64,000 bases of DNA from a virus (taxonomy: Duplodnaviria > Caudoviricetes), in the IMG/VR virus record IMGVR_UViG_3300020450_001133; one strand, 5' to 3'. Positions 239-58,196 of this stretch are shown in pieces. The position numbers and the translations under genes were made by a program. Position 1 is the stretch's first letter. Every line of letters starts with the position of its first letter. Below the pieces are notes generated by a model. The model ran no database searches. It was not told the origin of the DNA and was given only the letters and a program-made list of their open reading frames with translations.

Positions 239-410
239 TATCATTAATTCTGAGAACTAATCCTCTCTTTCTCAATTCCTTTGCTGTGTGTACTTCATTT
301 TCTGTAAGTTCATACTCATATATACCTTTTTCGCTACGCAACTTGTCAAAGAAGTGAAACTCTTTACTGCTAACGAATGTGGAACCATGTTTATTTTTTA
401 GAACTTTCAT
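192..410 (-). CDS. hypothetical protein, 72 aa (small winged-helix-like: ELRKRGLVLR)
   Basis: ORF track; ATGA overlap with upstream ORF. Confidence 0.65.
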   Translation of the reverse strand: MKVLKNKHGSTFVSSKEFHFFDKLRSEKGIYEYELTENEVHTAKELRKRGLVLRINDNGQPKYKAYPQKEII

Positions 411-604
411 CGTTTTATTATAGAACTCTTTAATTTCTTTTTAGGACCTGGCTTCTTGTGTGCATGTTTTGTCTTTTTAGGCTTTTTAGGTCTTTGGACA
501 ACACGTTGTACATCATTTGCAATTGGTTTTACAACTGTGGCAACTGCACCTGCACTCATGCCTCCTACTGATGCTGTCTCTTGAATTATTTCATGTATCT
601 TCAT
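407..604 (-). CDS. small basic late protein, putative internal head protein (65 aa)
   Basis: Start moved to ATG 604 (MKIHEIIQE), 5 nt after late promoter GATAAATA; TASVGGMSAGAVATV motif; Lys-rich tail. Confidence 0.7.
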   Translation of the reverse strand: MKIHEIIQETASVGGMSAGAVATVVKPIANDVQRVVQRPKKPKKTKHAHKKPGPKKKLKSSIIKR

Positions 605-609
605 GCTAG

Positions 610-617
610 TATTTATC
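610..617 (-). promoter_or_regulatory. T4-type late promoter (GATAAATA), leaderless spacing
   Basis: GATAAATA-ctagc-ATG(604). Confidence 0.7.
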
Positions 618-2520
618 CTTTTTTCTTGCCGGCTTTCATATTTGCACACCAGTGATACATTTTTCCTTTCTCACCACTGTACTTTTTTGCTTTTGCACGA
701 AGACTACTCACTGAGCCTTTACAACTAGCACCTGCTTTTTTTACTCTACCAGGTCTGCTTTTGCCTTTCTTTTTACCGTCAGCAAAGTTTTCATCTACAA
801 TCTCTGCTGGTATTACATCTCTGCCAACACGTTTTGCTTGATACACTCTGTGAAAGCCATCAAGTATTGTTTTGCCATCTTTGTCTATCAGTATCGGGTC
901 GTCTAAATCAACACCTACATCTGGATCAGTATCTATTACTCTGCCAAAACGGTCATCAATTGCTTCGTCATCTAAGTCTGCTACTTTAACTTTAATTAAT
1001 TTTGTCTTTTTGTCTTTAACATAATCTTTTACAGCAGGATTTAGATTTCTTTCATTAACATTCTTATAAACACTATACAACACAGGATTATTACCACAAC
1101 CAAGTTCATCGTTTGCTACACCTCTTATAAGTGCTTTTTGTCCTTGTCTGCTATCAAAGTCTCTATAAACATCTGCATAAACATCATCTATAGAATTATC
1201 GTCATGCCCATCATTACATTCATCTGTAAATCCTTCGTAGTGTACTATGTAATCTCCAACAGTATCTCTACCTACATCTGTGGGTACTAATTTATTTACA
1301 AACTCATCTACTTCTTTTGGTAAAGGCTTTTTATATCTATCTGGATCAAATACAGAACCTTTTGAATGTGCTAATGGATTGTATTCTGCTTTTTTATCAT
1401 GTGCTTTTTTATATTCTTTAGCACCTTGTTTTAAATCATCAAGTGCTTTTTTTAAAACACTTTTCATATCTTCTGTAACTCTTTTCTTTTTAGGCTTTTT
1501 TCTGCATTTCCAAACTTTGTCTGTGCTACAAAAATACTTACCATGTTTACAATTACTAGCATCTTCTGATGTGAGCATTGTTGTAAGTTTATTTTGCAAA
1601 CTGTCCATTACTGCTTGGTCACTAACTTTATGTGAAAAATGTTTCATTAATTCTTCAATGTCAGCATCTACAATAATTGCTTTTACTTTATCTATGCCTA
1701 ATATGTTTGCGGCATCAAATCTATGATGACCATTTACAAGATATCCTTTTTTATCTATTATAAAAGGTCTGTAATCTCCATCAAAGAACATGTTCTCTGC
1801 TCTTTTACTTAATCCATCTACTCTTTGACTTTGTACAGGTTTAATTTTGTCTAATGTAATAGTGCCTTGTTTAAAACTAAATGGTGAATCTTTAATGTCT
1901 CTTTTTCTTATTTGGGGTAATTGATTTCTATTAAAGTGCTTGTCGCTAACATGTCTTTCATATTCTTCTTCTATACCTTGTCTTAGTCTAATAACACCAC
2001 AACCTAATCTATCTCCAGCATTACCTGTTTTAAGACTTTCTTCATCTCCGCCTTTACCTAAATCATCTCTGCCGGCGTGTACAACAACTGCTCTACCAAC
2101 TACACTTCTATCACCACTTAAATCTACACGTCTGGCAACAATTTTAAATCTTGCTTCACCTTGTTCATTTGCTGTGACATTACCTAAATCTCCAACATGC
2201 CCACCATCTATGTCACCATGGTCAACTCCGTCTGGATTATAATGACCACCTGCACTAGCACAGCCATCACTTAAATCGCCAAATTCGTGTATGTGGAATC
2301 CATGTTCGCCTGGCTCTAATCCTTTTATAAGTCCTCTAATTATTGTAGGCTTGCCTGGTTCTTGTTTCATTTTAATGATGCCTTGCACATCACCTTCTGT
2401 ATGCTCAAAATTTACAAGTGCTTTTATAGTTTCTTCTGCTTCATTAAATGTATGCAAAGATTCACATTGGCATTGTGTTTCTCTAGTTCTAGGACATTTG
2501 TTTAAATCATTTGCCCTCAT
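613..2520 (-). CDS. sodC: Cu/Zn superoxide dismutase fused to two ParB/sulfiredoxin-like domains and basic Cys/His modules (635 aa)
   Basis: All SOD1 ligands present: H76,H78,H93,H101,H108,D111,H148, R171, C87/C174 (FHIHEFGD...GGHYNP...GHVGDLGN...VVVH...TGNAGDRLGCGVI); ParB-like NGHHR (aa ~263) and DGFHR (aa ~554). Confidence 0.9.
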   Translation of the reverse strand: MRANDLNKCPRTRETQCQCESLHTFNEAEETIKALVNFEHTEGDVQGIIKMKQEPGKPTIIRGLIKGLEPGEHGFHIHEFGDLSDGCASAGGHYNPDGVDHGDIDGGHVGDLGNVTANEQGEARFKIVARRVDLSGDRSVVGRAVVVHAGRDDLGKGGDEESLKTGNAGDRLGCGVIRLRQGIEEEYERHVSDKHFNRNQLPQIRKRDIKDSPFSFKQGTITLDKIKPVQSQRVDGLSKRAENMFFDGDYRPFIIDKKGYLVNGHHRFDAANILGIDKVKAIIVDADIEELMKHFSHKVSDQAVMDSLQNKLTTMLTSEDASNCKHGKYFCSTDKVWKCRKKPKKKRVTEDMKSVLKKALDDLKQGAKEYKKAHDKKAEYNPLAHSKGSVFDPDRYKKPLPKEVDEFVNKLVPTDVGRDTVGDYIVHYEGFTDECNDGHDDNSIDDVYADVYRDFDSRQGQKALIRGVANDELGCGNNPVLYSVYKNVNERNLNPAVKDYVKDKKTKLIKVKVADLDDEAIDDRFGRVIDTDPDVGVDLDDPILIDKDGKTILDGFHRVYQAKRVGRDVIPAEIVDENFADGKKKGKSRPGRVKKAGASCKGSVSSLRAKAKKYSGEKGKMYHWCANMKAGKKKG

Positions 2521-5500
2521 TATACTGTTCCTTTCTTAAGACTTAATTGTGCCCATTGTTCTCTACCAGCACCAGCCTGTGTAGGTATAATACTAATAGA
2601 GGTAGCCATTGCATGTCCACTACGTCTAAATGCAATTAAGTCATTTTCATTTTTAATCATTGCAGTTTTTTGGTTAGGAATACTAATTAAAAGTAAAGCA
2701 TCAAAATCATCTCTGTCTTTATACCATAAGAAGTTTTGTCTTAGATATGCATTTTCAATATTTTCTGCACTTGCATCTTTGGCTATTACATCACATATAG
2801 GAAGTGCAAATTCTTCCATATCCATTCTAAATAAATCTTCTGCAATTTGTCTTCTTAATTTTTGATTGTTAGGATCTGTTGGAGGTAAATCTGCATTAAG
2901 TCCATTAATAAATTTTGTAAATCCTAAACTTCCGCCTACACCACCAATTGCACCCATAACTGTTGGAATTCTTTCTGCATACTTTTCTATTACTGCCTGT
3001 TTAGCCTTTTGGCTTCCGCCACCGTAACCTATTCTTCCACCAGTGCTACTTGTAGCCGCTTTTAGTTCTACTTTACCTATGCCTTCTATTTCTAAGTCAC
3101 CTTCACCAGATGCAAGTTTTATTTTATTACTTAAACATGCTAGTCCGTATTCTCCAGGTCCTTTTTGATTAACACCAACACCATATGACGTTAATGCTCT
3201 AAAGGCTTTTGTGCTAATATCGTCACCAAATACATTTGCAAATGTGTTTAGTGGTTTGTCTAATTCTCCTATATTAACAACTGTTCCTGTTTTTTCTAAT
3301 CTTTCTATAAACTGACTCATTGTTGCATAGTCACTATCAAGTGTACTGATAATTCTAGTAATGTCTTGTATTACTTTTTCTTTTTGTTTATCTGAAAAAG
3401 GTTCGTCCATTAATGGATAACTAAATGCTTTGTCTAATGTTTTTCCTATATCTTCGCTGTTTAATAATTTATATATTCTATCTAATAGGTCTGCATGTTC
3501 TTCATTTGTAGCATCTAAACCACTAATAGTTTTTATGATGTTGTCTTTTTCAGCACCAATATCTTTATATTCTTTAAGCAGTTTAGCAACATGTTGTTTG
3601 CTCCACTCATTTAAATCTATTTTTTCTTTCATGTGGTCTGGTAGTGCATTTACAAAATGTCTTACAATACCTCTAGCACATGCATCTTTACCGCCTTGTG
3701 CTGTTAATTCTCTAAATGCGTTTAACATTTCAGGCATAGGTATAGCCTGGAATGCCAACATTTGTTTTTTAAGGTCGCCTACAGGAAAATGGTCTGCTAA
3801 TATTTTGTTTATAATTTCTATTCTATCAAAGTCATTTGTAGATTCATCTAAACCTTCTTTAGCCATTTTGGTTGCTGTTGCATACATAACTGCTTTGGCA
3901 TCTTTGCCATAACGTTTCTCAAAATCGCCTTTGGACTTTTTCATGCCTTTAACATACTTTTCTTTATCGCTCTTTTCACCTTTTGTCAAAGGTCTTTCAT
4001 TCATCTTTTCAGTTTTCTTTTTCATTTGATTAATGAATGTTCTATATACAGCCGCGGCTGATTTTTTACCTGCCGCTTTGGCACGTTGTTCCATAGCAAC
4101 TGCCGCCTGTATTTTGTGAGCATGTTTTTTACCTGAACTTCTTATCTTACTAACACTAGCCTTTGCGTCTTTCACAGTAGCAAATTTTAATCCTTTAATA
4201 GTGCCTTTGGGATTTTCATCTGTGTACAAGTCACTATGTTTTTTACTTCCTGCTGGTTGTCCTTTTTTACGTGGTATTCTTTTGCCTTCATTTTTCTTTT
4301 TGCCTGCACAATGAGCCTTTTGACTAAAGCCTTTTGGATTACTGCAATTTATACTGTCTTTGTATTTCTTACTCCACTTTTCTAATACTGTGGATTCATT
4401 TATAATAAGCAACTGTTCTTCTAAAGGTAATTTATCGAACCTGTCAAACACACTTTCATTCTGAGCTAGGTATTGTCTACCTTTGGCTAATGCATCTTGG
4501 AAAGTTCTTGGCAGTTGACTATTTGCTTCTTCTTTGTCTATTAATAGTTTTCTCATGACAGCCTTTTTGAAATCTTCGTCATTTCTTGGATTTTTTAAGA
4601 ATCCAACTAAATCGCTTACTTCTGGTCTCAAAATATGATATCCTATGCCATCTTGCATCATAGTATTAAATTCTATATACTTTTCACGCATATCTGCATA
4701 ATCTTGTTCAGTTACTTCGTCAGTTGAAAGATATGTGATACCTACACCATCTGCTTCGTCGTCTGCTCTTCCTCTTCTACTTGGTGGTGGAGCAGAACCT
4801 GAATCACCGTAAATAGAACCTACATCATCTCCAGGACTGCCGTCAGGATTTTTTCTAAAGTAGTTGCCAGCACTTACCATGTAATTCATTTTTATATATT
4901 CTGCGGCGGCTTTTACACTTGCTACCCATCTTTCCATACCAACAACATTTGGTTCTGGTTCTGGTCTCCATTCATGATTACCATCAAAGTTTCTAGCAAC
5001 TTTTTCTAATATGTTTGGACCTTGATTGTCTACACCTCTTTCTATTTTAAAGAAGTCTGCTAAGTTGGTCCAATTTACTGCATCTTGAATAGTGTTAGAT
5101 GCATCGCCTTGCATGTGTTCGACGCCACCTGCATCAATAATTCTTTTATTATCTATTACCCTTATGCCTTTGGGTGTTTGTTCCATTACAGTTTGAATTG
5201 CTTTGTAAAAACCCATGCCTTTGTTTATGACTAAATCATTAACTTTATTTTTAATTTTGTCTGCATCTTTACCGTGATATTTTACCCAATCATATGCCGA
5301 AGAAAGTTTATCATCGTTTTGTATTGTCCAACTGGCGGCACTACTTCTGTTTAAAGGCTCACCTGAATATTTATTTTTTAGTTCTTCGGTAGGTATAAGT
5401 TCTTCAACATCTCCCATACCTGCTCTGCCATCTAACTTTCCAGTAAATTCAATCCTAAATGATTTTGATATTTTTCTTCTATCCTCTCCATCTAATGATA

Positions 5501-8500
5501 CATATTTGTCTGGGTTGTTTAAAGTTTTAAAATCTATTCCATACACAGAAGCAAACTTTTCAAACAACTTACCATAGTTTACTGCTCTCCAGTTTTGACT
5601 CATATTGCCAACTTTTTGATAAATTTGTAATAATTCACTTCCACTCACAGCATCTTCTAATGGTCCCCAATGAGCCGAAGGAACAACAAAAAACATGCCA
5701 GGTCTAGAACCTTTGTTTACCTTTGTTGCACCATCCACAACATCTTGCAACAATGTACGATTAGGCATCATAGGTGCACCTGAATCATCTTTTTGGTCTC
5801 CGTACTCATCTATCCATTCCATTATATTATCATAATCTGATTTTCTCATGTATGTAAAAGAATGTCCAGGTATGTTTATGGTAGCATACGAACTGTTACG
5901 AATTGTTTTCTTAAAGTTATCTCTGTCTTTGGTCAGTTGTTGCTTACGTTTAATTGAACTGTCTTGACTTGCAAATCCATTATCAACAAATATTTTATCT
6001 ATGCCTCTCATAAAGTCACTTAGACCTTTGAATCTGGATTTCAAAAGATTTTTTATTTCTTTAAATTTATAATAAGCCGGATAACGTTCTTTGTTTCTAT
6101 AATATGCACCTAAACATTCTCTAACTGTATCAGTAACAAAATCTTCTAGATTTGTAATTGTTCTTTTTGTTACATCACCTTGTACAATATCATCTAATAC
6201 ATTTTGAATGTTTTCATATTTGTAACTTCTAATACCAAGAAATGTTTGGTCATCTGTTTCCCCAAGCATATCCATAAAGTTTTCTTTGTCTTCATCTGAC
6301 ATGTTGGGTAAATCTTTTACTTCTTCTGGATCTATTCCAAATATATCTGCAAACTCAGTTCCTCCGTCTTCTGATTTATTTGTTTCATAAAATTTTTCAA
6401 TCAAAGGTACCATTAATTTTAGACTTTCTGTTGTTTTTGATTGGTCTGTGGCAAATTGTTGCTCAAGAAAATCAAATCTTCTTCTCAACAACATTGTATA
6501 TTTGCTTAATGCAACATCTTCATAACTGTCATCATCATATATGTTTGGATTGTGATTTCTATTTACAGGTTCACTGTAAGATTCAAACTGTTTTACAAAT
6601 TTTATAAAATTATTAAAACCTTCTTTGTTATAAATCATTCCTGGTTGTACAAAGAAAGGTCTGCTGTTGTATCCTTCAGTTGTTAAGTGATTATAAAAAT
6701 CATTAAACTGTCTCTTGCTACTTGCATCTTTGAAAAGATTTTTCATATTCTCTATGATTTCTTTCATATCGGCTTTTGAATCTTTGCCTGTGCGAACATC
6801 TATACCAAGTGTTGTAAGTTCTTTAAGTACAGTAGGATTAAAATCTTTATTGTTCATTACATTCCACATGCCTTTGACTGCAGATTCAACTTCAGGTGCA
6901 GAGATAAAGTCTGGTCTTGAAATTACTTCTCTTTGCAACATTTTGTTCAAACCTTCTCTCACCATTTCAATTCTGTTTTGAATTGTGAGATTTGCATCCA
7001 TTTGTAAATCATCTAACACTAATTTAATATTGTTGTCTAATTCTTTATCAGAGATACTTTCTTTTTTCATAAAGGTTCTTAAAGCACCGATACTTTTTGC
7101 ATTTGGTTGTTGTCTTGCAGTTCCTTTAGCAACATCTACAGCAACCATTCCAAGTGCTTCACTAAATTCTTTTACAGCCTCTCTTCTCATAGCACCAGCC
7201 TCTTTACTGGGCTGAGACGTTGATGGTTGGAAGTATGCTTTAATTGACCTACCGCTTCTTGCTCGATTTACTTTATCGATAATATCATCTTCTTCTTTGA
7301 CTTTGCCTCTTTTGGAGTATTTAATGCTGTTTAATGCTCTTTTTAAAGAACTATCATAATCATCTAAACTAGCATTTGTGTTTTCAATGAATTCCATCCA
7401 TTGTTTTTTCCATTTGATGTCTGCTTTAGGTTCTAATGATTGTCTAGCCTGTTTTAATTTTTCCATTGAATGTAGCATTTTTCTAGAAAAGTCTAAATAT
7501 TTTTTAGAACTAATCATTGCTTTTGTTATATCCAATATTGGATCGCTGGCAACATCTTCAAATTGGCCTTTGAGTTCATCTACTTCTTCTACATCACCTT
7601 GTGCAACGTCATTTGCTTTACGCAATAGTTTGGACAATGCTTTTACATAATCGCCTTCATATTGGTCTGTATGCCCAGCAATCATTGTGGTGGCATATCT
7701 TACTACTGCTTTGAATACTTTGTCGAAGTCTGTTTCGTAATCTTCTCCACCACCTATTCTAAACTCTATTAGATCCGTCATAGTTTTTCTATCCATTTGA
7801 CCTTTAAAATGTATTGCACGGAATTTGTCATCACTGATAGCCTTATCTAAGAATGCTTCTGCTTTTTTGATACCTTCAGTACCTGATTCTTGTTTAAGGT
7901 CACCAATTGCATTTTGTAATTCTTTGTATTGACTTTTGGTGTAAGTGTTACTGCCTCTTAAAAATTCATTTAATAAGTATTGGTCTCCTAACAACACAGC
8001 CATTTTAACTCTGTTCACTCCATTTTTACCAAGCCATTCATTGGCTTCCTCACCTTGTGCATCGTAACTCATTGTGACATGCAATCCAGTACTGTTGTTT
8101 GTTGATGCTCCTTCGCTTTGCAGGAACTCAAAAAACTTTTTCATTTCTGCTAACATTCTTCTTGGAGTACTAAACACTGGTGATATAATTTCTGCACCTG
8201 TTCCATATCCGTCAATACTGCTGTCTGACTCTACCGCATATTGTATTGTACTGCCACTGGTGTTACCATAGTCGCCACTTTCCACATGATCATCTGAAAA
8301 AGCACTATTTTCTCTGACAAATTTTGAAACAAGTTCGGCAACTTCACCTAAGTTGTTTCCATAACTGTAATCTATGCCCATGTCATCACAGAATGAACTC
8401 ATGCTGTACCATTGGTCATTGATCCAATCGTCATAATCATAATTACTTTCTGCATCTTCGTATGCACTTTGTCTTACATCATCGTCGTCTGCGGCTTGTT

Positions 8501-9518: not shown

Positions 9519-9522
9519 ACGT

Positions 9523-9804
9523 TTATCTTCTATTAAGTTGTCTTAATCTTCTAGCCGCTGGATTCATTCTTTTAGTTCTTTGGCTAATTCTACTAAGACG
9601 TTTACCCATTCTGGCTTTAGTTCTTTTTAGTACCATACGTTTTTTCATATTAATAGGTGCAGTACATTGTGATGGTTTACTCACAACTCTACCTTTACGC
9701 CTACCGCTTGTACAACGAACAGCACGTTTAATTTTTTTACCCATTCTACGCCAGACCATTCTGGCTTCGGTAATTTGTTCTTCTGTTATATCACTAATTA
9801 ACAT
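9523..9804 (-). CDS. very basic 93-aa protein, putative DNA-binding internal head protein
   Basis: MLISDITEE N-terminus then Arg/Lys-rich body with two Cys. Confidence 0.7.
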   Translation of the reverse strand: MLISDITEEQITEARMVWRRMGKKIKRAVRCTSGRRKGRVVSKPSQCTAPINMKKRMVLKRTKARMGKRLSRISQRTKRMNPAARRLRQLNRR

Positions 9805-9805
9805 T

Positions 9806-10054
9806 TTATCCCATCATGTTTACTAATAAACCAACAACCAGTGCAATCAAAGTAGTAAAACTTGTTCCTACAATAGCAATAAGCCAATTTTCCATTTTGT
9901 CTAAACGTCTTTTTGTATCATCTTTGAATTCACGTAATTCAGTAGTAATACTTTCAATACGCAACATGTCAGCAATTATGTGTGCTTCTAAATTATTAGA
10001 TTCTGCATACACCTGCTTTTCAACTGGTTTCTTTTCTGGTTCAGGTTTCTTCAT
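9806..10054 (-). CDS. small coiled-coil protein with C-terminal transmembrane helix (holin/XhlA-like architecture, function unknown)
   Basis: Coiled coil (ITTELREFKDDTKRRLDKMEN) followed by WLIAIVGTSFTTLIALVVGLLV. Confidence 0.55.
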   Translation of the reverse strand: MKKPEPEKKPVEKQVYAESNNLEAHIIADMLRIESITTELREFKDDTKRRLDKMENWLIAIVGTSFTTLIALVVGLLVNMMG

Positions 10055-10055
10055 C

Positions 10056-10460
10056 TTATAATAAATCCTGTTTAGTAAATTCCATATTTATGGAACCTGT
10101 AGTATCTATGGTGCCTGCATTAAGCACTACACCATTTAATTCATCTTTAAGTGTGTCTACTGTATGGGCATTAGGAGTTTCTGTAGCAAATTTAAAAATA
10201 AAACCTGCTCCAGTTAATGTAGGTGCACCAAAATTTTCTAATTTGTTTGTACCTACTCCATTTAGTTGTACTGGATTATTCATCACAGTTGGCATTGCCC
10301 TCATTCCTATTACTTGTACAACACTTTCGAAATCTTTTTGACTGTTATCTGCAAAATTTCCAGATGCTGTTATGTCTAAAGTAGTGAACAAAGTAAAAAA
10401 CTCAATGTTACCTGTTAATACTTCTACGGATGCCATTGCTCCGCTTCTTGTTCCCACCAT
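10056..10460 (-). CDS. putative virion structural protein (134 aa), possible paralog of 10569-10901
   Basis: Start moved to 10460: late promoter at 10487-10494 and SD AGGAG lie inside the ORF-track N-terminus. Confidence 0.65.
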   Translation of the reverse strand: MVGTRSGAMASVEVLTGNIEFFTLFTTLDITASGNFADNSQKDFESVVQVIGMRAMPTVMNNPVQLNGVGTNKLENFGAPTLTGAGFIFKFATETPNAHTVDTLKDELNGVVLNAGTIDTTGSINMEFTKQDLL

Positions 10461-10486
10461 ACTGTCTCCTGTGTATGTAATAACTG

Positions 10487-10494
10487 TATTTATC
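10487..10494 (-). promoter_or_regulatory. late promoter GATAAATA with SD leader
   Basis: GATAAATA...CAGGAGACAGT-ATG(10460). Confidence 0.65.
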
Positions 10495-10516
10495 ACTTTG
10501 TACAGATTAATAAGTC

Positions 10517-10548
10517 AAAAAAAATCCCCACACAAGGCGGGGATTTTT
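10517..10548 (-). terminator. intrinsic terminator after 110-aa structural gene
   Basis: AAAAATCCCC-gccttgtgt-GGGGATTTTTTTT on minus strand. Confidence 0.85.
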
Positions 10549-10568
10549 CAAAGTTTAAAACTTTTAGG

Positions 10569-10901
10569 TTACACTACTCTGTATTCACCTGCAGTTACCG
10601 TTGCGTTTGCTCCGTTACCTGTAAGCATTGGTTGAATAGCCGCTAGTAATCTAGCCGCGGTAGGTGAACCTTCAACACCAACATGCATTACTGTCGCAGA
10701 AATGCTGTTAATAAGTACTGGAGTACAAATTGTTGATATACCTTGAACAACTAATTCACCTTTTTGAGCCGCTCCACCTGAGAACCCAAATTGGCTAATG
10801 TTGTCAGTACCATCTACTTCATCAATAATGAAGTGACTTAAAGTACCAACCATAAGTTGACTGTTATCAAGAACTGCACCATTCACTCTTGTTTGTGCCA
10901 T
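10569..10901 (-). CDS. putative high-copy virion structural/decoration protein (110 aa)
   Basis: Own late promoter, hairpin leader, SD AGGAGA and own terminator; small Ala/Gly/Val-rich protein. Confidence 0.65.
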   Translation of the reverse strand: MAQTRVNGAVLDNSQLMVGTLSHFIIDEVDGTDNISQFGFSGGAAQKGELVVQGISTICTPVLINSISATVMHVGVEGSPTAARLLAAIQPMLTGNGANATVTAGEYRVV

Positions 10902-10978
10902 GATAGTCTCCTACTGTTTTTTTACATGTTCGTGGTCTCTAAACCACCACCGTTTTAAGAACATGCTTTGGATACAAG

Positions 10979-10986
10979 TATTTATC
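10979..10986 (-). promoter_or_regulatory. late promoter GATAAATA with 77-nt structured leader
   Basis: Motif match; leader contains CATGTTC/GAACATG and GTGGT/ACCAC stems. Confidence 0.65.
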
Positions 10987-11025
10987 GATTATTTTTGGAA
11001 TTTAAAGTATAGTAAAAATGTAATA

Positions 11026-11622
11026 CTATTTGCCTTTTCTTGTAAAGTTAAAAGATTTTTTAGTTTGAGGTGCTAAATCTCTAATCTTTTTAACTGCACC
11101 AGAAATATCATCTATAGTATCTCTTGTTGCTTTTGCAACTTTGCCAGGACTTTTAAGTTTTCTCAAAGGTCCTATATCTTTGAAACGTTTTGCTATGCCG
11201 ACTTTGTCTTTTTTGGGTTTGGCTTCTGGTTCTACAGTTGTACCATAGTATCTGTCGTGTTTTAGGCTTCTACCAATAGCATCTTTTCTACTTCTAGAAT
11301 CATCATCTGAATCTTTTGTTGATGAAGATTTCATTTTATCAGGGTCAATTCCAGGTGTACTGCGTTTAAATCCAAACTCTGATTTCATTCTATCTTTTAA
11401 TTCTGGATGTAATTCTTCAATAGCCAAATCCACAGCCAAACCTGGTGTCATACTTGGTCCACCTGTTGTGTATAAACCTTTTGCTTTTTGTACTACTCTG
11501 GGTGTGTCTACATTTTCCCAGCCAGGTCTTCTTCTGCCCACAGGTCCAATTTTGTCTTCAATTTCTTGCATGACAATATCGTTTACATTTTGTTCGACTA
11601 TGACTATATCTGCTATTTTCAT
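11026..11622 (-). CDS. basic late hypothetical protein (198 aa), putative internal protein
   Basis: MKIADIVIVE N-terminus; late promoter 5 nt upstream. Confidence 0.7.
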   Translation of the reverse strand: MKIADIVIVEQNVNDIVMQEIEDKIGPVGRRRPGWENVDTPRVVQKAKGLYTTGGPSMTPGLAVDLAIEELHPELKDRMKSEFGFKRSTPGIDPDKMKSSSTKDSDDDSRSRKDAIGRSLKHDRYYGTTVEPEAKPKKDKVGIAKRFKDIGPLRKLKSPGKVAKATRDTIDDISGAVKKIRDLAPQTKKSFNFTRKGK

Positions 11623-11627
11623 GTTAA

Positions 11628-11635
11628 TATTTATC
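11628..11635 (-). promoter_or_regulatory. late promoter GATAAATA, leaderless spacing
   Basis: GATAAATA-ttaac-ATG(11622). Confidence 0.7.
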
Positions 11636-12402
11636 TATAATTTTTTTCTACCACTTGCCCAATAACCTGCTATTGCGCCAATTCCTGCACCTGTTTTAGA
11701 ACCTAACTTTCCTTTGGTAAGTTTTGGTAATACTTTACTTCCTACATAAGCACCACCAACTGTTGCGGCGGCTCTTTTCAATGTATCTGATTTACGTTTA
11801 GGCTCTTTGTATGCTCTTGTAGTTTTCATTGCCACTATGTGTTGGAAAACTTCACTAGGTCTGGCTTTTATTCTCATGCGTTGCATAATTTTTGCCACTA
11901 CCATTTGCTTTTGTGCATACTTTAAATCACTCCAATCAACAATTAAACGTCTAAATAATCTATATTGTGATTCTTTAATATCTAATTGACGTTCTAGTCT
12001 TATTAAAAATGAACTAATTTCACTTCTACTTGGAGTTGTTTGTCCTAACTTTCTTAAAAAATTAAAATGCTGTCTATTGTTAAATTGCAATTTGTCTAAG
12101 AACTTTCTATCTTTTCCACTTATTTTTAAACTTGTATTGTCTGAATACTTTATTGCATAAGCCAACATGTAGATATCTGTTGCATGTGTTCTAAACAAAG
12201 CATAAGGTCCATATGCAGTACTCTTTCTAGCATAAGCAACACCGTAATCCTGTTGTTCTTTATCTTTTGTAAACATTATTACACTTAATGTTTGCAGATA
12301 TAATAAGTCAGCAATATCTCTACCTGAAAGTCGTGCAAAGTTTCCTGTGTATCTATACAGTTTGCTTTCACTTAAATCTTGGTCTATTAATTGAAAATCC
12401 AT
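11635..12402 (-). CDS. hypothetical protein (255 aa) with C-terminal glycine-zipper-like segment
   Basis: ORF track; AAATVGGAYVG...TGAGIGAIAGYWA. Confidence 0.75.
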   Translation of the reverse strand: MDFQLIDQDLSESKLYRYTGNFARLSGRDIADLLYLQTLSVIMFTKDKEQQDYGVAYARKSTAYGPYALFRTHATDIYMLAYAIKYSDNTSLKISGKDRKFLDKLQFNNRQHFNFLRKLGQTTPSRSEISSFLIRLERQLDIKESQYRLFRRLIVDWSDLKYAQKQMVVAKIMQRMRIKARPSEVFQHIVAMKTTRAYKEPKRKSDTLKRAAATVGGAYVGSKVLPKLTKGKLGSKTGAGIGAIAGYWASGRKKL

Positions 12403-13697
12403 TATGCTCCTGGCATTCCTGTTTGGAAATTTTGCCTACTAAATTCTAATCTGTCTACTAATTTTAATGCATTACCTAATCTGTCTACTGCAACAAAACC
12501 TTCTTCTCCTGTTACTTCGTAACCCTTTTCGCTTTTAATAAAAGTAGGTATTTGTTGTAACGTTCCTAGTTTATTTAACAATTTAACTTTTGCTTCTATA
12601 ATTTTAAGATATAAATCATATACTGCTACAATACCTTCAACATGCTCTTTGATAAATCTTACACCTTGAACCATAAGGTCTGTTTTTTTATCTTTAGTTG
12701 CTTGAGTTTTTACTTTGTCTATTTCTTTTGTCATAAAGTCTATGTATTTTTGTACAAAACTTTGTGCAAACTTTGTAGGGTTTTGTTCAAACCCGCCTGC
12801 TCTTATGGCATTGTTTACATGTGCTTTTAATTGTTGTAAGAAATCTTTGCCAATTAAATCGTTGCCTTTTTCAAGCCAACTAAATGTTTCATTGTCTATG
12901 CTTTTTAAGTATGTGTCTGCATCTTTAATTGCTTGTAATACATCTGCACTTTCATCACTTGTAAGTGTAACTGTACCACTTAAATCTTTTATTGTGGCGT
13001 CTCTGTGCCACACACCGTTTGCTTGTCCTAACACACTACTGTCAAAACCAAATTTAGCAGTTGTGTCTGCAAGTGTAGGTCCTCCTACATATTCTGTATG
13101 CCACACAATACCAAAACTTGCACTTGAAATTTGTTTTTCTAAATCGCTGTCTTTTGGTATTGCATAAGTTATTGTGTTAGGTTTGAATGCAATATAGTTA
13201 TCTCCGTCTATTGCAACTGATTCTATATCTTCTGGTCCTGCAAACAACATGTCTCCTTGTGCAACTGTATTCCAATTTAATTTACTTAGATAGTTTAATG
13301 CAAGTTTAAGTTTCTTTCTTAATCCACTACCGTCTTTATCACCTACATCTGCATGATTAATATCTATGTCTTTTTCAGTAAAATTTATTTTTGCCTTTTT
13401 GGCAAATACACCTTTTGTACCTACAAAAAATTTACCTGTTTCAGGATCTTTACCTGCCACAATGGCTGGTGCTCCATCCCATTTTGTTGTCATGCTTACT
13501 GATTCTTTTGAACTGCCTTCTAGCATTTGATGTAAACTGTAAAGATAGTTTACTGCTTCTTTGGCTCCTGCAAAACCTTTATTAAAAATATTATCTTCTA
13601 AATGTTCTAGATGAGTATTTTTACCTTCTGCTTCAAGTATTAAACTTTCAGAAAGTATTTGTGTTATTAGAGGTTTTGATATTTCTAAAAATTTCAT
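12402..13697 (-). CDS. DUF6267-like protein; RNA/DNA-ligase-type nucleotidyltransferase fold (431 aa)
   Basis: KNTHLEHLED start motif; ligase motifs I KWDG, III QGDMLF, IV EGFV, V LKLV. Confidence 0.7.
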   Translation of the reverse strand: MKFLEISKPLITQILSESLILEAEGKNTHLEHLEDNIFNKGFAGAKEAVNYLYSLHQMLEGSSKESVSMTTKWDGAPAIVAGKDPETGKFFVGTKGVFAKKAKINFTEKDIDINHADVGDKDGSGLRKKLKLALNYLSKLNWNTVAQGDMLFAGPEDIESVAIDGDNYIAFKPNTITYAIPKDSDLEKQISSASFGIVWHTEYVGGPTLADTTAKFGFDSSVLGQANGVWHRDATIKDLSGTVTLTSDESADVLQAIKDADTYLKSIDNETFSWLEKGNDLIGKDFLQQLKAHVNNAIRAGGFEQNPTKFAQSFVQKYIDFMTKEIDKVKTQATKDKKTDLMVQGVRFIKEHVEGIVAVYDLYLKIIEAKVKLLNKLGTLQQIPTFIKSEKGYEVTGEEGFVAVDRLGNALKLVDRLEFSRQNFQTGMPGA

Positions 13698-16600
13698 TAT
13701 ACACCGGCTAACTCTCTAATCCTTTGTAATCCTGCAGGGATTAGATATACATATTCTGTTTCTTCTTCTAATATTATAACATCATAACCTATATCTTGCC
13801 AAGTTAAATTTACAGATTCTAATATGCTATTCATAAATTGATATGCCTCAGAACGCATTCCTCTGGCTACTTTTGCCGCTGTTCCTTGAATACCTACTTT
13901 CTTCTGTACAGCATTCAATGAACTAGCATAGTCTGAAACGTCTGTGCCTTGGTCTTTGTATGCACTTAATTTATCTGCAATTTTCCTTGCAATTTTTGGA
14001 TCTTTAGTTTGCGCCAGTGCGGCTAAATCATTTCTTATTAATTGATGGTCTTGTGGAGTAATTGCACCTCTTTGTGCTTTACTCTGTGCAACTGCATCTT
14101 TTCTTGCGGCAATATCATCTGCCTGTGCATCTGCCTGAGCGGCACCTTTACCACCTGTTGCTGGTTGTTGCTGAATAGGTTGTCCGGTTGCATCATCTTT
14201 GCCATCTTTGTTTGCATCTTTTTGTTGTTGTTTTAGTTTTGCTCTTCTGTCACGTTGATATTTTGCACTATCAGTATCACTTACTTGACCTTTTACTTTG
14301 CCTCCAGTCTTTTGTTTCTTAACTGGCTTTTTAGTAACATCATTCTTGCCGTCACCATCTGCATCTACTTCTGCACCAGTTTTATCATCAACACCGTCTT
14401 TGTTTTTATCAACTGGTGGTGTTTGTGGTCCTTTTGGAGGAGTTGTTCCGCCTTGTGGTCCTTTTGGAGGAGTTGTTCCGCCTTGTGGTCCTTTTGGAGG
14501 AGTTGTTCCGCCTTGTGGTCCTTTTGGAGGTGTAGGTGTTTGAGTTGTACCACCTGGTGTTGTACCACCTGGCTGTTTCTTTCCATCATCACCTTTAAGT
14601 CCAGCACCTAATCCGCCTATTGCCTGACCAGCCATTTTAAATGCTCCGCCAAGTGCTCTGCCCGCCAATGCACCTGTTACTGCGGCACCTTTTTGTAACA
14701 TGCCTGCGTTAGGATCATTTCTTGTTGCTGTTGCTAACCCGCCGCCTACTGCTTGTTTTATTCCTTGTCCTATTTTAGAAACTATACCTTGTTTCTTGCC
14801 TGTTGCTGGATCTATCTTTGGATCTTGTCCAGTTGGGTTTGCTTGTGTCTGTTTTATTCTTTTTGCTTGTAAACTATCTGGAGCAAGTGGATCTGCACCT
14901 GCTATAGGTTTTCCACCTTTATCAGTTTGTATTAAATTACCTGTTTCAGGATCTGTTTTATAGAAAGTATCATTAACAGGGTCTCTAACTACACCTGCAG
15001 TTTTCTTCGGATCACCGCCATCTATGTTTGGATTTTTTGGATCAGGAATTGTTTCGCCACCTTGTTGTCCGCCTGTAGCACCACCTTTTGGTTGTTGTCC
15101 ACCTTGTGGTTGTTGTCCGCCTTGTGGTTGTTCTCCTGGTTTAGGTTCTTCTCCTGGTTGTGGCTGTGTTCCTGGTTTAGGTTCTTCACCACCTTCTGGA
15201 GGTGTTTCGCCACCTGGTCCTTTTGGAGGAGTATCTCCTCCTTCTGGAGGAGTAGGTTCATCATCTGGTGTTTCTTCTGGTGCTTGTGCTTCTACACCTG
15301 CTCCTTTAAATGCGGCATCAACTTCACTTTTTGTTGCACCTGAATTTTTAATTAAGAATTTACCAACTTCATCTGAATCTGTTGGTGAACCTGCACCTTC
15401 ATAATCTGTTTGTAGTTTAGCAGGATCTATTGCACCCTGCATACCAACTGCTTGTTGTATTTTGTTTAAGAATCCTTTTACTGGAGCACTATTTAAAACA
15501 GGTTTAATTAAAACGTTCATAGCACCACCGGCTACTGCTTTTGCTCCTTTGCCCACAGCCGCTGTTGCTTTGTTATATGCTGAACCAACTTTTTTGGCTA
15601 TACCGGCTAAGCCTCCGCCTTTTGCTGGTTGGTCACCTGGTGCTTCTTTGATTGTTTGTTCTATATTTTCTATTAATCTATGTTCTTGTAAATGATTTAA
15701 TCCTTCAATTACAATAGTATTTTCTTTTACCCAACGGTTATACCATTCTAACATGGCAAATACTGCCACTTGTTCGCCTACTTGTTCTACTAGGTCATCA
15801 AAATCTTTACCAATTTCTTCTGATAAGACGTTTTTCCATTCTGGATGTACATATCCCATCTCCAGATCCATTCTGTCTCTAGAGGCCTTTATTCTATCAG
15901 CCGCAGTCGCATTTGGATCTACAGGAACAATGTCATCGCCAAATGCATCTTTTGTAGGATCGTCATCATCAAACCAGTCTGTATCATCTGCACCACCCAT
16001 TTCTGCTTCAATTTCTGCCTTTGTAGCCGCAAAAGCCGATTCGCCATTGCCATAATCTGTTGGTTCAGGTGGACCATCGGGCCACATTTCGTAATCCCAA
16101 TCTTCTCCATTACTGTCCATCCAATTTTTTAAATTGTCACGAAATGCATCTAATTTTACTGTGTTAGCGGCGGATTCGGCATTGAATTTATTAAATGTAT
16201 CTATTTTTGGAAACTTTTCTTTGACAAAATCTGCGGAATCCATTTGAATGGCTCCTTCAACAGATCCTGGATTTGCTCTTGCATCGTCCATCATCTGTTT
16301 TAATTTAGGGCCTATTGTGGCTTCTGCTTTAATAGGTAATTCTTTTTCTGCCGCAACTAAATCATCACCTTGTTGTTTTAATGTCGCTTCTATTTCTGCA
16401 GGAGTGTCATCTGGTGAAACTGCTACTTCTTTAGGAGCATTTGCTTCGTATTTTGTTATAGCCTCTTGTGCCTGTTTTTCTACTTCAGGAGTTATAGGTG
16501 CAACTTCCTGTGGTGCATTTGGATCTTCTGCTGGTGGTTCACCAACTTCTTGTGGTGCATTTGGATCTTCTGCAGGTACTTCGCCTACTTCACTTGCTCC

Positions 16601-18094
16601 ACCAAAATCATTATTAGTAGGGCTTTCACTTCTAAGACCTAAAACTTTACCATCAGGATCTTTAAGTGTTTGTGTATAACCGTCTGCAACATCTGGATCA
16701 TCGAAGTCTGCTGAAACTCTTACTTCAACTGTATTACCGTTTGGCATTTGTGTTGTATATGTACCTGGTTTTAATTCATCTAAATTTGTTACGTTTCCTT
16801 GTGCATCGAATTCTGCTGGTACTGGCATTTCAGGTGGTTGTATAACTTCTGTAGAGCCATCTGCACCTGTAACTGTTATTGTTCCGTCTGGGCTCATTAT
16901 CTGTGTGCCACCATCCGGAGTTGCTATTGCTTCACCTGGTCCTAATGCATCTGTGGGTACACCACCTGCACCAACGCCGGCTTCTTGAGCAATTTGATTT
17001 CTAAATGCTGTTGCTTCTTCTGAGAAGTAACCATCCATGCCGCCACCATTGTCTGCAACTATGCTATTGTACTGAGCAAATTCTTCTTCAGTAAACAAAA
17101 CACCCATTGAACTACCACCATTGAAATTGGATTCGATACCGTTCATAGTTCCAACTGTATTGTTTTGTAATATTTCCTGATATTTTTCAGCATATTCAGG
17201 ACCAACATTTATTTGTTTTAAAAAGTTATTTGTTGCTTGGTCTAGTTCAGGGCCAGAAAAAAGTTCGTTTGAGAGACTTGGATCTGATTCCATGTTTGCT
17301 AAGAATTGGTCAATTTCTTCTGGAGTCATGTCAGGCATTGCGTCTTGTAATTCACTTGCTGGTAATGTCATTCCACTTTTAAAAGTGGATAAATTTTCAT
17401 CACCAGTAACTTCTACACCATCTAATATTCCATCTAATGCCGCACCAGCCAGACCTGCAAGAGCACCTTTGGCTAATCCACTAGCCGCCGCTTTTCCAAC
17501 ATCTGCAACTGTTCCGCCAGCCGCCGCCTTAATAGCACTATCTACAACTGTTCTGAATATTGCCGCACTTCCTATAACACCTAACAATGCTGGGCCACCA
17601 ACTCCTGCGGCACCCATACCAATTGTTATAACTGTTAAAATTAATCCTTTAAATGCCGCAACGTCTTGGTCATTTTCTATTGCTTGAGCACCTTTTTCAA
17701 TTTGCCCTACAATAGCACTTGCTTTAGAACCTGCTGGTTCTGGTAAACCTGCAACCATCTTTTTAATACCATTAATAGGTACTGCATTACCAACTTTAGA
17801 TAGTAAGCCTTTTAGTTTAGGATTTCCTGTAATTTTAGCAAATAAAGGTGTTAATTGTGTTTGAACTTTCTTTGCAATTTTTTGAGTATCTCCACCTTCG
17901 CCTCTATTGGCAACCATTTGTTGAAATACTGTTTGAATTTGTGCTGGTTGTAAAGGAGCCTCATCCAATCTTTGCATTTCTGCAATAATTGTATTAAGGT
18001 CATCTCTAACTTCACGTGGAAGTGTTTGCCATGCTTCATTGATAGCAATACTTTCTGTGATTAAATTTATGTCGTTACGAATTTGAATGGACAT
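13697..18094 (-). CDS. 1465-aa low-complexity protein with hydrophobic Gly/Ala-rich segments and Pro/Gln/Gly repeats; putative internal/ejection protein
   Basis: FKGLILTVITIGMGAAGVGGPALLGVIGSAAIF segment; PPKGPQGGTT, PAEDPNAPQEV and QPQGG repeats; C-terminal IRELAGV. Confidence 0.75.
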   Translation of the reverse strand: MSIQIRNDINLITESIAINEAWQTLPREVRDDLNTIIAEMQRLDEAPLQPAQIQTVFQQMVANRGEGGDTQKIAKKVQTQLTPLFAKITGNPKLKGLLSKVGNAVPINGIKKMVAGLPEPAGSKASAIVGQIEKGAQAIENDQDVAAFKGLILTVITIGMGAAGVGGPALLGVIGSAAIFRTVVDSAIKAAAGGTVADVGKAAASGLAKGALAGLAGAALDGILDGVEVTGDENLSTFKSGMTLPASELQDAMPDMTPEEIDQFLANMESDPSLSNELFSGPELDQATNNFLKQINVGPEYAEKYQEILQNNTVGTMNGIESNFNGGSSMGVLFTEEEFAQYNSIVADNGGGMDGYFSEEATAFRNQIAQEAGVGAGGVPTDALGPGEAIATPDGGTQIMSPDGTITVTGADGSTEVIQPPEMPVPAEFDAQGNVTNLDELKPGTYTTQMPNGNTVEVRVSADFDDPDVADGYTQTLKDPDGKVLGLRSESPTNNDFGGASEVGEVPAEDPNAPQEVGEPPAEDPNAPQEVAPITPEVEKQAQEAITKYEANAPKEVAVSPDDTPAEIEATLKQQGDDLVAAEKELPIKAEATIGPKLKQMMDDARANPGSVEGAIQMDSADFVKEKFPKIDTFNKFNAESAANTVKLDAFRDNLKNWMDSNGEDWDYEMWPDGPPEPTDYGNGESAFAATKAEIEAEMGGADDTDWFDDDDPTKDAFGDDIVPVDPNATAADRIKASRDRMDLEMGYVHPEWKNVLSEEIGKDFDDLVEQVGEQVAVFAMLEWYNRWVKENTIVIEGLNHLQEHRLIENIEQTIKEAPGDQPAKGGGLAGIAKKVGSAYNKATAAVGKGAKAVAGGAMNVLIKPVLNSAPVKGFLNKIQQAVGMQGAIDPAKLQTDYEGAGSPTDSDEVGKFLIKNSGATKSEVDAAFKGAGVEAQAPEETPDDEPTPPEGGDTPPKGPGGETPPEGGEEPKPGTQPQPGEEPKPGEQPQGGQQPQGGQQPKGGATGGQQGGETIPDPKNPNIDGGDPKKTAGVVRDPVNDTFYKTDPETGNLIQTDKGGKPIAGADPLAPDSLQAKRIKQTQANPTGQDPKIDPATGKKQGIVSKIGQGIKQAVGGGLATATRNDPNAGMLQKGAAVTGALAGRALGGAFKMAGQAIGGLGAGLKGDDGKKQPGGTTPGGTTQTPTPPKGPQGGTTPPKGPQGGTTPPKGPQGGTTPPKGPQTPPVDKNKDGVDDKTGAEVDADGDGKNDVTKKPVKKQKTGGKVKGQVSDTDSAKYQRDRRAKLKQQQKDANKDGKDDATGQPIQQQPATGGKGAAQADAQADDIAARKDAVAQSKAQRGAITPQDHQLIRNDLAALAQTKDPKIARKIADKLSAYKDQGTDVSDYASSLNAVQKKVGIQGTAAKVARGMRSEAYQFMNSILESVNLTWQDIGYDVIILEEETEYVYLIPAGLQRIRELAGV
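14423..14530. repeat. coding tandem repeat, 30-nt unit x3 plus 18-nt partial (PPKGPQGGTT)
   Basis: TTGTGGTCCTTTTGGAGGAGTTGTTCCGCC repeated perfectly at 14423, 14453, 14483. Confidence 0.95.
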
Positions 18095-18347
18095 CGTGGC
18101 TCTCTTTTATAACTTTTTTTATGCCACGTGAGAATTTTTTAGAATCACCGCTTTTAAGACTGTTTATCATTCTACGTTCTAAGTCTAATGCAGTAGATTC
18201 ATCATACGTTTCTCTTAGAATTTTCTTAACATTTTCAACACCACTAACCAAATGTTCTACTCTATTTTCAAGTACATGATGTTTATTTCTATCAACACTG
18301 ATAGAGTTAAGTTCTTCTAAAATTGTTCTAGTTTTACCTTGTGACAT
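18075..18347 (-). CDS. hypothetical late protein (90 aa)
   Basis: ORF track; late promoter at 18371-18378. Confidence 0.75.
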   Translation of the reverse strand: MSQGKTRTILEELNSISVDRNKHHVLENRVEHLVSGVENVKKILRETYDESTALDLERRMINSLKSGDSKKFSRGIKKVIKESHDVHSNS

Positions 18348-18370: not shown

Positions 18371-18378
18371 TATTTATC
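18371..18378 (-). promoter_or_regulatory. late promoter GATAAATA heading the internal-protein cluster
   Basis: Motif 23 nt upstream of ATG 18347 with AGGAAA in the leader. Confidence 0.65.
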
Positions 18379-38913: not shown

Positions 38914-38925
38914 ACTTGTATTTAT

Positions 38926-40521: not shown

Positions 40522-40558
40522 AACACTATTTATTAAGTTTTAGAGGGGAAATAAAGTA

Positions 40559-43240: not shown

Positions 43241-43390
43241 TTATTTCTTAGACTTTCGTTTTTTCTTTAATTTGCGTGTAGGATGTCCAAACATTTGGTC
43301 AAATCTGTGATTTCTAGCATCAATATAGTCCTGTGGTTTGTCATAAACCTTTTTAGGAGTCTTAAATTCTATGATATCACTTATTTTCAT
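43241..43390 (-). CDS. small basic protein, 49 aa (not in ORF track)
   Basis: MKISDIIEFKTPKKVYDKPQDYIDARNHRFDQMFGHPTRKLKKKRKSKK; ATGA overlap with diiron gene stop. Confidence 0.7.
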   Translation of the reverse strand: MKISDIIEFKTPKKVYDKPQDYIDARNHRFDQMFGHPTRKLKKKRKSKK

Positions 43391-56217: not shown

Positions 56218-56236
56218 AATGTAGTATTTATTAATT

Positions 56237-58188: not shown

Positions 58189-58196
58189 GATAAATA
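58189..58196 (+). promoter_or_regulatory. late promoter for gp14-gp15-NUDIX block
   Basis: GATAAATA-ctacatt-ATG(58204). Confidence 0.7.

Follow-up and report, generated by a model that had tools for sequence, protein, structure and literature searches.

Layout of the island and its source phage

The window analysed here is a stretch of 64,000 nucleotides (nt) from a virus of the Caudoviricetes (IMG/VR record IMGVR_UViG_3300020450_001133), and the subject of this study is an 18-kb island of genes at positions 407-18347, most products of which appear to carry a short N-terminal leader resembling the signal found on internal proteins of phage T4. The island encodes small basic and acidic proteins, a DUF6267 protein, and two large proteins of 635 and 2332 amino acids (aa) that look like strings of modules (Table 1). 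Throughout, φ denotes a hydrophobic residue, and an arrow, as in E↓A, marks the predicted cut position after Glu. Gene order is kept among relatives and runs from a helicase through the 90-aa protein, a variable large protein, the DUF6267 protein, the 255-aa protein and variable genes to the 110-, 146-, 82- and 93-aa proteins, the giant protein (2332 aa) and the protein that joins a superoxide dismutase (SOD) to ParB-like domains (635 aa). The large island proteins are highly variable between relatives.

All window genes from position 1 to ~57 kb lie on the minus strand, and the G+C content is ~34%. The large terminase shares 56% identity with that of PA5oct, a Pseudomonas jumbo phage of the T4 supergroup, and is akin to other terminases of this supergroup; a T4-type tail sheath, tube, UvsX, a gp32-like single-stranded-DNA-binding protein, a DnaB-type helicase and a primase are all encoded in the window, and no head module lies within it. 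An exact 39-mer taken from the window had no match in IMG/VR. With the DUF6267 gene, 80 syntenic IMG/VR loci were retrieved from marine metagenomes, one of which (L021) is contained in G001, a relative of 339,794 bp estimated to be 91% complete. Homologues in the database sit on contigs of 320-336 kb. Given the 80 marine loci, the 340-kb G001 and these contigs, the window's phage can be assigned to an abundant, uncultured clade of marine jumbo phages within the T4-like lineage.

The head module of G001 comprises, in order, the portal, a 66-aa protein starting MRLNEFYE, an acidic protein, the protease, a scaffold-like protein and the major capsid protein. The protease belongs to PF03420 (Peptidase S77, the T4 gp21 family; E 5.8e-25, above cut-off), so that a gp21-type protease together with scaffold and capsid genes is seen in this relative. 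The scaffold-like protein starts MAVNFKDLIE↓S, and the N-terminus of the capsid protein carries LLE↓G, VLE↓N and LQE↓S.

Two starts in the list of open reading frames (ORFs) were revised. The true start of the 65-aa protein, whose G001 homologue starts MKIHDIIGE↓T, is the ATG at 604, and the listed GTG at 649 is probably wrong. Because homologues of the ~134-aa acidic protein have upstream stop codons, its start is placed at the ATG at 10460, and the GTG at 10496 is probably wrong; a promoter-like motif stands at 10493. Conservation of the 1465-aa protein is limited to its last ~100 residues, and relatives carry proteins of 191-1540 aa at this position, which often start MRLYE-, MKIYEV-, MLINEI- or MRLEQIEE↓A. 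Hydrophobic stretches rich in Gly and Ala occur in the 1465-aa protein, whose middle is very acidic and which also contains perfect tandem repeats (PKGPQGGTTP, and others of EEPKPG type).

Table 1. Features of the island, of proteins near the terminase gene, and of ATAAATA heptamers in the window.
Feature	Position	Strand	Remarks
65-aa basic protein	407..604	-	pI (isoelectric point) 11; leader MKIHEIIQE↓T at 578-604; ATAAATA 12 nt upstream
635-aa multi-module protein	613..2520	-	leader residues 1-27 ending FNE↓A (2440-2520)
Sod_Cu in 635-aa protein	1990-2388	-	residues 45-177; Pfam E 2e-44
ParB-like in 635-aa protein	1621-1815	-	residues 236-300; PHROG ParB-like matches
Cys/basic module in 635-aa protein		-	residues ~321-350
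LPKEV module in 635-aa protein		-	residues 400-490; separate gene in other loci
Second ParB-like in 635-aa protein	784-912	-	residues ~537-579
Basic C-terminal NFADG module in 635-aa protein	616-789	-	residues 578-635; separate gene in other loci
2332-aa modular giant protein	2520..9518	-	leader with invariant [LI]-x-E15↓YG, 9474-9518
N-terminal region, 2332-aa protein	9000-9518	-	residues 1-173; ends at conserved LKE173↓SE
Acidic stretch, 2332-aa protein		-	residues ~200-370
Amidoligase_2-like region, 2332-aa protein	7539-8366	-	residues ~385-660; protein-language-model features
WSKKYK Cys/basic module, 2332-aa protein	4281-4379	-	residues 1714-1746
RIPRK module, 2332-aa protein	3996-4280	-	residues 1747-1841
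Basic module, 2332-aa protein		-	residues 1842-1892
Conserved C-terminal domain, 2332-aa protein	2523-3842	-	residues 1893-2332
93-aa very basic protein	9523..9804	-	pI 12; 13-aa leader MLISDITEEQITE↓ARMVWRR
82-aa protein	9806..10054	-	variable K/P/E-rich N-terminus, then conserved N-[LIM]-E↓AHIIADML; ATAAATA 37 nt upstream
~134-aa acidic protein (146 aa in ORF list)	10056..10460	-	conserved start MVGTRSGAM...; without leader
110-aa acidic protein	10569..10901	-	conserved; without leader
198-aa basic protein	11026..11622	-	leader MKIADIVIVE↓Q at 11593-11622; ATAAATA 12 nt upstream
255-aa basic protein	11635..12402	-	first 12 residues end invariant φ-[S/C/A]-E↓[S/A][R/K]L[Y/F]R (76 loci)
431-aa DUF6267 protein	12402..13697	-	Pfam E 4e-101
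22-aa leader of DUF6267 protein	13632-13697	-	MKFLEIS...ILE↓AEG; precedes conserved KNTHLEHLED domain
1465-aa acidic low-complexity protein	13697..18094	-	N-terminus ends ITE↓S and INE↓A
90-aa protein	18075..18347	-	PHROG 11854 'virion structural protein'; ATAAATA 30 nt upstream
Two proteins outside island, beside terminase gene	40559..42054	-	start MKELKDIINE↓S and MEDIKKYLKIVE↓S
49-aa basic ORF outside island, near terminase gene	43241..43390	-	leader MKISDIIE↓F
ATAAATA heptamers, first five	610-616, 10085-10091, 10487-10493, 11628-11634, 18371-18377	-
ATAAATA heptamers, further	38919-38925, 40527-40533, 56225-56231, 63930-63936	-
ATAAATA heptamers	58190-58196, 61119-61125	+

A recurrent N-terminal leader

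The first-pass annotation of this DNA had noted that many of the proteins open with one pattern, and the N-termini that it quoted were all found on the minus strand at their starts. A regular expression for the leader (^M[KRL][ILVFYAM].[DE][ILVF]) matched 6 of 13 island genes in the window against 1 of 55 others (p=1e-4), a post hoc figure in that the expression was fitted to the same genes. Since this makes the enrichment test in the window circular, G001 offered the fairer test. Here, 10 of 391 called genes matched where ~1 would be expected from composition, and seven of these fall in one 15-kb island, with 7 of the 21 genes of the syntenic island matching against 3 of 370 elsewhere (Fisher p=4.8e-8). 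The leader is concentrated in the island in both the window and G001. One of the three G001 matches outside the island is the 66-aa protein between portal and prohead protease.

Across the 80 loci, leaders vary in sequence and length while keeping their character, and they end in φ-x-E followed by a small residue. Of 117 database homologues of the 93-aa protein (representatives of 90% clusters), 115 have φ-x-E directly before [A/S/N/T]-RMVWR, with Ala occupying P1' in 93, Ser in 14, Asn in 7 and Thr in 1; across the 80 loci, the leader of this family ends …φ-x-E↓[A/G/S]RMVWR. That of the 255-aa family ends φ-[S/C/A]-E↓[S/A], while the DUF6267 leader starts M-[K/R]-F-x-[E/D]-[I/F]-[S/T], varies in length and always ends φ-x-E↓[A/S] before KNTHLEHLED; residues 1-33 of the DUF6267 protein are disordered in its AlphaFold2 model. 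A 27-residue, Cys-containing leader ending φ-x-E↓[A/S] is kept in four homologues of the 635-aa protein. For the 2332-aa protein, a cut at E10 (MKAKDVRTLE), as implied by the first-pass annotation, had to be abandoned: homologues have TIK, TFQ or TID at this point, and the invariant site of the family is [L/I]-x-E15↓YG. The 90-aa protein has a conserved [ST]-I-[LI]-E-E-L-N near its N-terminus.

Leaders of this type also stand before different proteins at corresponding places. At the same locus, the window encodes a leader with a Cu/Zn SOD, and G001 the leader MKLHDFLTE↓D with an Fe/Mn SOD (Pfam). The basic NFADG module, joined as IVDE↓NFADG inside the 635-aa protein, occurs as a separate 65-aa gene (MKIVEITE↓NFADG) in G001 and L019, and the ParB module forms a separate gene in other loci that starts MRISEILTE↓A or MKLFE↓V. 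As judged from these comparisons, the leader is portable between non-homologous cargo (two SODs, the ParB module and several small basic modules), and most island products bear a predicted propeptide of ~9-27 residues that starts M-[K/R]-φ-x-[D/E]-φ and ends φ-x-E↓[A/S/N]. The SOD exchange is a non-orthologous replacement between unrelated folds (G001 194765-195304, equivalent to L092:14765-15304, versus window 1990-2388), and a PTOX/alternative-oxidase-like gene adjoins the Fe/Mn SOD in G001 (194165-194752).

In T4, internal proteins with a capsid-targeting sequence (CTS) are reportedly cut by the gp21 protease, a finding ascribed to Mullaney and Black in 1996. Reviews state that the CTS of IPI, IPII, IPIII and Alt is cut by the gp21 prohead protease (PMC9026906, PMC3012670); the T4 CTS reads MKTYQEFIAE (PMC8442874), in which residues 4 and 7 serve targeting and residues 8 and 10 processing (PMC9026906). 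Other T4 substrates (NC_000866) have the N-termini MAKINELLRE↓S (gp24), MLKEQLIAE↓A (gp22), MNEPQLLIE↓T (gp21) and MEGLIE↓A (gp67), and gp23 is cut at …FLTE↓AEIGG. The island leader, φ3-x-[D/E]5-φ6 … φ-x-E, aligns to Y4-Q-E6-F7-I8-A-E10 at a shift of one residue; the likeness to the T4 signal that had been claimed for it is supported, and extends to T4's own gp21 substrates. In T4, an E-to-D change prevents processing and leaves targeting intact.

Five island genes (those for the 65-, 82-, 146-, 198- and 90-aa proteins) have the heptamer ATAAATA 12-37 nt upstream. It also precedes the terminase, sheath and other structural genes but not the helicase, primase or other replication genes, suggesting that island genes carry late-promoter-like motifs. 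Heptamers start at two preferred distances upstream of start codons, 12-15 nt and 29-37 nt; at the shorter spacing, the 5' leader of late mRNAs would all but vanish and could not accommodate a Shine-Dalgarno sequence. Two proteins fall into PHROGs annotated as 'virion structural protein', namely the 90-aa protein and the MKELKDIINE protein beside the terminase gene (PHROG 14802), the N-terminus of which is conserved in G001.

Modules, junctions and domain identities

The 635-aa and giant proteins share one module pool, since modules of the former occur inside the giant protein at other loci (L055, L018). Among relatives, the giant protein ranges from 720 to ~2300 aa, and nothing remains in its short versions but the first ~170 residues, some small modules and the C-terminal domain. 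In the 2332-aa family, homology breakpoints fall at ~170-175, 690-705, 777-786, 1401-1414, 1578-1598 and 1684-1689, and further on at ~1708-1718, 1742-1749, 1833-1838, 1881-1902 and 1965-1987. It had been proposed that modules begin right after φ-x-E sites, and this held for part of the sites: VDE↓NFADG, VLE↓KWSKK, MNE↓RPL, LDE↓ST, LNE↓W, VNE↓R and FNE↓AEE match homology breakpoints or stand-alone versions of modules, whereas VDE↓F sits inside the LPKEV module, which begins at residue 400. For 6 of 8 module types, each seen in at least two upstream contexts, φ-x-E always or nearly always comes directly before the module, which is found either as a gene of its own after a leader or within a giant protein after φ-x-E.

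An alignment of 16 sequences of the 2332-aa family has conserved φ-x-E sites at LLE15↓Y, LEE137↓S, LKE173↓SE (the exact end of the N-terminal region), LFE180, ISE239 and LNE1971↓W, and two further ones inside the amidoligase-like domain. As a general punctuation of these proteins the motif did not hold up, most sites being attributable to chance by their density and conservation. Because the density, conservation and loose N-terminal tests (below) were all null, the signal is seen in the leader and a limited set of junction positions and not in the count of sites. A 1.5x enrichment of φ-x-E among 150 module representatives was equalled by φ-x-Q (1.47x), and thus reflects shared linkers and does not count as independent evidence. 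In a closer, 321-kb relative from ENA, a polished long-read assembly, the giant gene appears as consecutive overlapping ORFs (L110:3287-6257; residues 1-277, 280-711, 777-983 …); these most likely reflect frameshift errors and not a natural fission of the gene, and the apparent split was not used as evidence.

In the window, the WSKKYK…CSNPKGFSQKAHC module comes after VLE↓K; in short relatives it comes after LDE↓A or LNE↓A. When the 37 residues of the module served as query, an exhaustive HMMER search (E≤0.001) returned 2,302 clusters at 50% identity, and contexts were examined for the best 150 of these. Within this set the module is N-terminal in 47, in 34 of them behind a 9-10-residue leader matching the regular expression (such as MRYAELTE↓K, MKAKEFVIE↓K and MRISEIITE↓K), and internal in 103, all of which have Glu before it (φ-x-E in 91, x-φ-E in 10). 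Many internal copies, behind differing upstream modules, are preceded by a two-site linker, …ES[V/I][A/E]E-[D/E]QLDE-K, and a leader, there ahead of other modules, opens 18 of the 91 complete proteins that hold an internal copy. Among 50,697 phage records, the module is confined to T4-like cyanomyoviruses. Cyanophage Bellamy carries it as a 51-aa gene (gp122, MKSFKQFQE↓SWSNKYK) adjoining a 618-aa module string and the terminase gene, and in S-CAM9 a gene starting MKSFNQFLSE↓S adjoins a 696-aa string of such modules. Such phage module strings make up a large family of small Cys-containing basic modules joined by acidic linkers, all annotated as hypothetical, with components including WSKKYK…KGFSQKAHC, KDACYHKVKSRY…, LRxWFKxKW…, KCWKGY… and DUF6321 (for example L082:2659-4515 and L108:2267-4357); Bellamy gp123 also contains DUF192.

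The enzyme labels of the first-pass annotation fared unequally. Its SOD is firmly assigned by Pfam (Sod_Cu, PF00080; 151.7 bits against a gathering cut-off of 28.9, covering profile positions 1-133 of 133) and its ParB-like domains by generic ParB-like PHROG matches only, while the resemblance of residues 385-660 of the 2332-aa protein to Amidoligase_2 (score 0.96, 98 of 100 matches) is a lead, not a proof. Each large polypeptide holds at least two domains of disparate activity: the 635-aa protein has Sod_Cu and ParB-like domains, the 2332-aa protein an Amidoligase_2-like domain and basic modules. Neither a nuclease nor a ligase-like fold could be recovered. Sequence searches of the PDB, run with DUF6267 and with two parts of the 2332-aa protein (its amidoligase-like region and its C-terminal domain), found nothing, and neither the AlphaFold2 model of DUF6267 (pLDDT, the predicted local distance difference test, 63; ligases at ranks 31 and 40) nor that of the C-terminal domain (pLDDT 73) had a significant Foldseek or VIA match. 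In searches with these models, ligases and the restriction enzymes HinP1I and MspI appeared only in weak rows short of significance, and for want of a significant fold match both labels stay unconfirmed. DUF6267 (12402-13697) contains a KWDG motif like ligase motif I, and it adjoins HxGH-type nucleotidyltransferases in marine T4-like phages. No island protein has an HExxH motif, and no peptidase family was found in Pfam scans.

Proposed packaging, its alternatives and known systems

I infer from these data that the island is a cluster of late genes, hypervariable in content, which encodes head-internal (ejection) cargo of a marine T4-supergroup jumbo phage. The N-terminal propeptide would recruit each protein onto the prohead scaffolding core, as the T4 CTS does, and would then be removed by a gp21-type (Peptidase S77) prohead protease. 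The 635- and 2332-aa proteins would be strings of independent modules (Cu/Zn SOD, ParB-like, amidoligase-like, small Cys-containing basic), and because many junctions carry the same φ-x-E site as the leaders, some of these large proteins would probably be cut there inside the head, and the separated modules delivered with the DNA. That the proteins are packaged and lose their leaders, and that the large ones are at least partly cut, has a probability that I put at roughly 55%. The first-pass annotation had already read the island as a packaged toolkit of polyproteins; the T4-like lineage, the portable CTS-like leader, the late-like motifs and a virion protein of cyanophage S-SM1 speak for it, with targeting, packaging, cleavage, injection and any role ahead of gene expression as predictions from sequence.

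Marine T4-like isolates share the synteny of helicase, variable protein, DUF6267 and nucleotidyltransferase. In S-SM1, the neighbour of the DUF6267 homologue is T4-GC190, which starts MKKFSAFLNE↓A and has ~85 residues before its enzyme domain; this 'cytidylyltransferase' was detected by mass spectrometry in purified virions, according to Sullivan et al. 2010 (PMC3037559). The DUF6267 protein of P-HM2 begins MSKNTHLEH, without a leader, and those of HTVC008M and Melnitz have short ones (MYNDLLVE↓D and …KYITE↓D); such leaderless and short-leader homologues fit leader-dependent loading, but do not prove it.

A number of observations weigh against packaging with cutting. The gp21-type protease is known here from the relative G001 and not from the window's own genome, the case for packaging comes from sequences alone for this phage and its uncultured clade, and in Pfam and PHROG scans no island protein matched the T4 internal-protein family (IPI, IPII, IPIII, Alt). 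A looser test, for φ-x-E-[ASGTQ] within 30 residues, gave no separation of the island in G001 (p=0.14). The motif is also common: φ-x-E occurs at 0.029 per position, there are 77 sites in the 2332-aa protein, its density in the window's large proteins equals that of shuffles (0.9-1.3x), and in the 2332-aa family its Glu is not better conserved than other Glu (0.41 vs 0.38). RIPRK and LPKEV, two of the eight module types, have no φ-x-E upstream, and as separate genes they begin with MSNP↓ and MN↓, no leader being present. A φ-x-E ahead of a module could, moreover, be part of that module's own fold. The figures on density, conservation and these two module types favour an alternative in which the products are packaged and lose their leaders while the large proteins stay whole as polyvalent proteins, like the N4 virion RNA polymerase (vRNAP), with the φ-x-E before a module belonging to the module or linker; some polyvalent proteins are indeed delivered unprocessed (PMC5512222). 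I consider this unlikely, if deserving of serious attention: the same module begins at the same residue behind a leader or behind another module, the linker ES[VI][AE]E-[DE]QLDE-K with its two sites recurs in many unrelated upstream contexts, and modules move freely between separate genes and fusions.

Also against packaging, the island adjoins replication genes (helicase and primase), and the gene table of PMC3037559 does not mark T4-GC71, the cyanophage homologue of DUF6267, as a virion protein. Both would suit proteins that act inside the cell in host takeover or anti-defence and are never packaged, with an N-terminus that is an amphipathic helix for partner or chaperone binding, regulated proteolysis or localisation; SOD and amidoligase would, besides, be unusual capsid contents. 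This explanation seems improbable in view of the late-promoter-like motifs, the two members of virion-structural PHROGs, the leader-bearing S-SM1 protein detected in virions, the closeness of the leader to the T4 CTS, gp24 and gp22, and the restriction of the module to T4-like phages among isolates. Least credible is an origin of the pattern in A+T-rich codon use, selection on translation initiation (AAA and ATT after ATG) and chance φ-x-E. The G+C content, the frequency of MK starts in the window and the abundance of φ-x-E would agree with it, but the excess and clustering of matches in G001, the conservative substitutions at the protein level (K/R, D/E, I/V/F) and a terminal φ-x-E held at variable distance from the start speak strongly the other way. 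Codon bias is largely refuted as the origin by the enrichment in G001 and the conservation of leader ends.

Should packaging with cutting be correct, the T4 mechanism of capsid targeting and prohead proteolysis would not be peculiar to coliphages but would load a very large, fast-evolving set of injected proteins in abundant ocean phages. This would explain hundreds of 'hypothetical' multi-module proteins in cyanophage genomes, and leader plus φ-x-E junction would amount to a sequence rule predicting virion cargo and mature protein ends. Some packaged activities would be unexpected, for instance an amidoligase, ParB-like NTPase/nuclease domains, and SOD from either of two unrelated families encoded at one locus. 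More tentatively, and with the odds somewhat against it, a polyprotein capsid-cargo strategy may be common to marine T4-like phages, both the 320-340-kb jumbo clade and cultured cyanomyoviruses, whereby a portable ~10-residue tag loads shuffled mini-domains and enzymes including SOD, φ-x-E linkers are cut by the maturation protease and the peptides injected. Effectors injected in this way would then make up an unrecognised class, large and combinatorial, in which a single module accounts for over 2,300 protein clusters. Cultured cyanophages (Bellamy, S-CAM9, S-SM2, P-TIM68 and S-SM1 among them) carry the same leaders and modules, so the idea is directly testable. Full-text literature searches found no paper linking the CTS to cyanophages or mentioning DUF6267.

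Of the known systems, the internal proteins of T4 share with the island a short N-terminal leader with hydrophobics three apart and a terminal φ-x-E, its portability between unrelated proteins, small, basic, hypervariable cargo among which an enzyme is found (for T4, Alt), and a gp21-type protease, known for the island's lineage from G001. The island differs in having no sequence homology to them, in its consensus M-[K/R]-φ-x-[D/E]-φ, in leaders of up to ~27 residues, in cargo that includes module strings of 635-2332 aa and in genes gathered in an 18-kb cluster, and it is known as a system from sequence. Polyvalent proteins (Iyer et al. 2017, PMC5512222) likewise combine several unrelated domains per polypeptide, ParB-like ones included, in a context that is late or virion-related (for the island, putatively so), with delivery alongside DNA and processing predicted. 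In contrast to them, the island has no zincin (MPTase; frequent there, not universal), cutting in trans by the prohead protease is predicted, and a word search of PMC5512222 turned up neither SOD nor the small Cys/basic modules.

The jumbo phages phiKZ, 201phi2-1 and SPN3US (gp175/gp245 protease; PMC5694885, PMC10052503) also package many proteins whose propeptides, thought to have a targeting role, are cut off behind Glu, in many cases at more than one site in a protein, but their motif is [S/A/G]-x-E, most of their propeptides exceed 100 residues, they belong to another lineage, and their cargo is not made of small-module strings. The Dar system of P1 (DarA, DarB, DdrB, Hdf; PMC9024508, PMC12810830) resembles the island in its large head-packaged enzymes, its ParB-like DdrB and loading during morphogenesis, and differs in its ordered dependency, another signal, the lack of a T4-type CTS and the lack of homology to island proteins. 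The mechanism proposed for the island is the known one of T4 CTS and gp21, and its architecture is that of the known polyvalent proteins.

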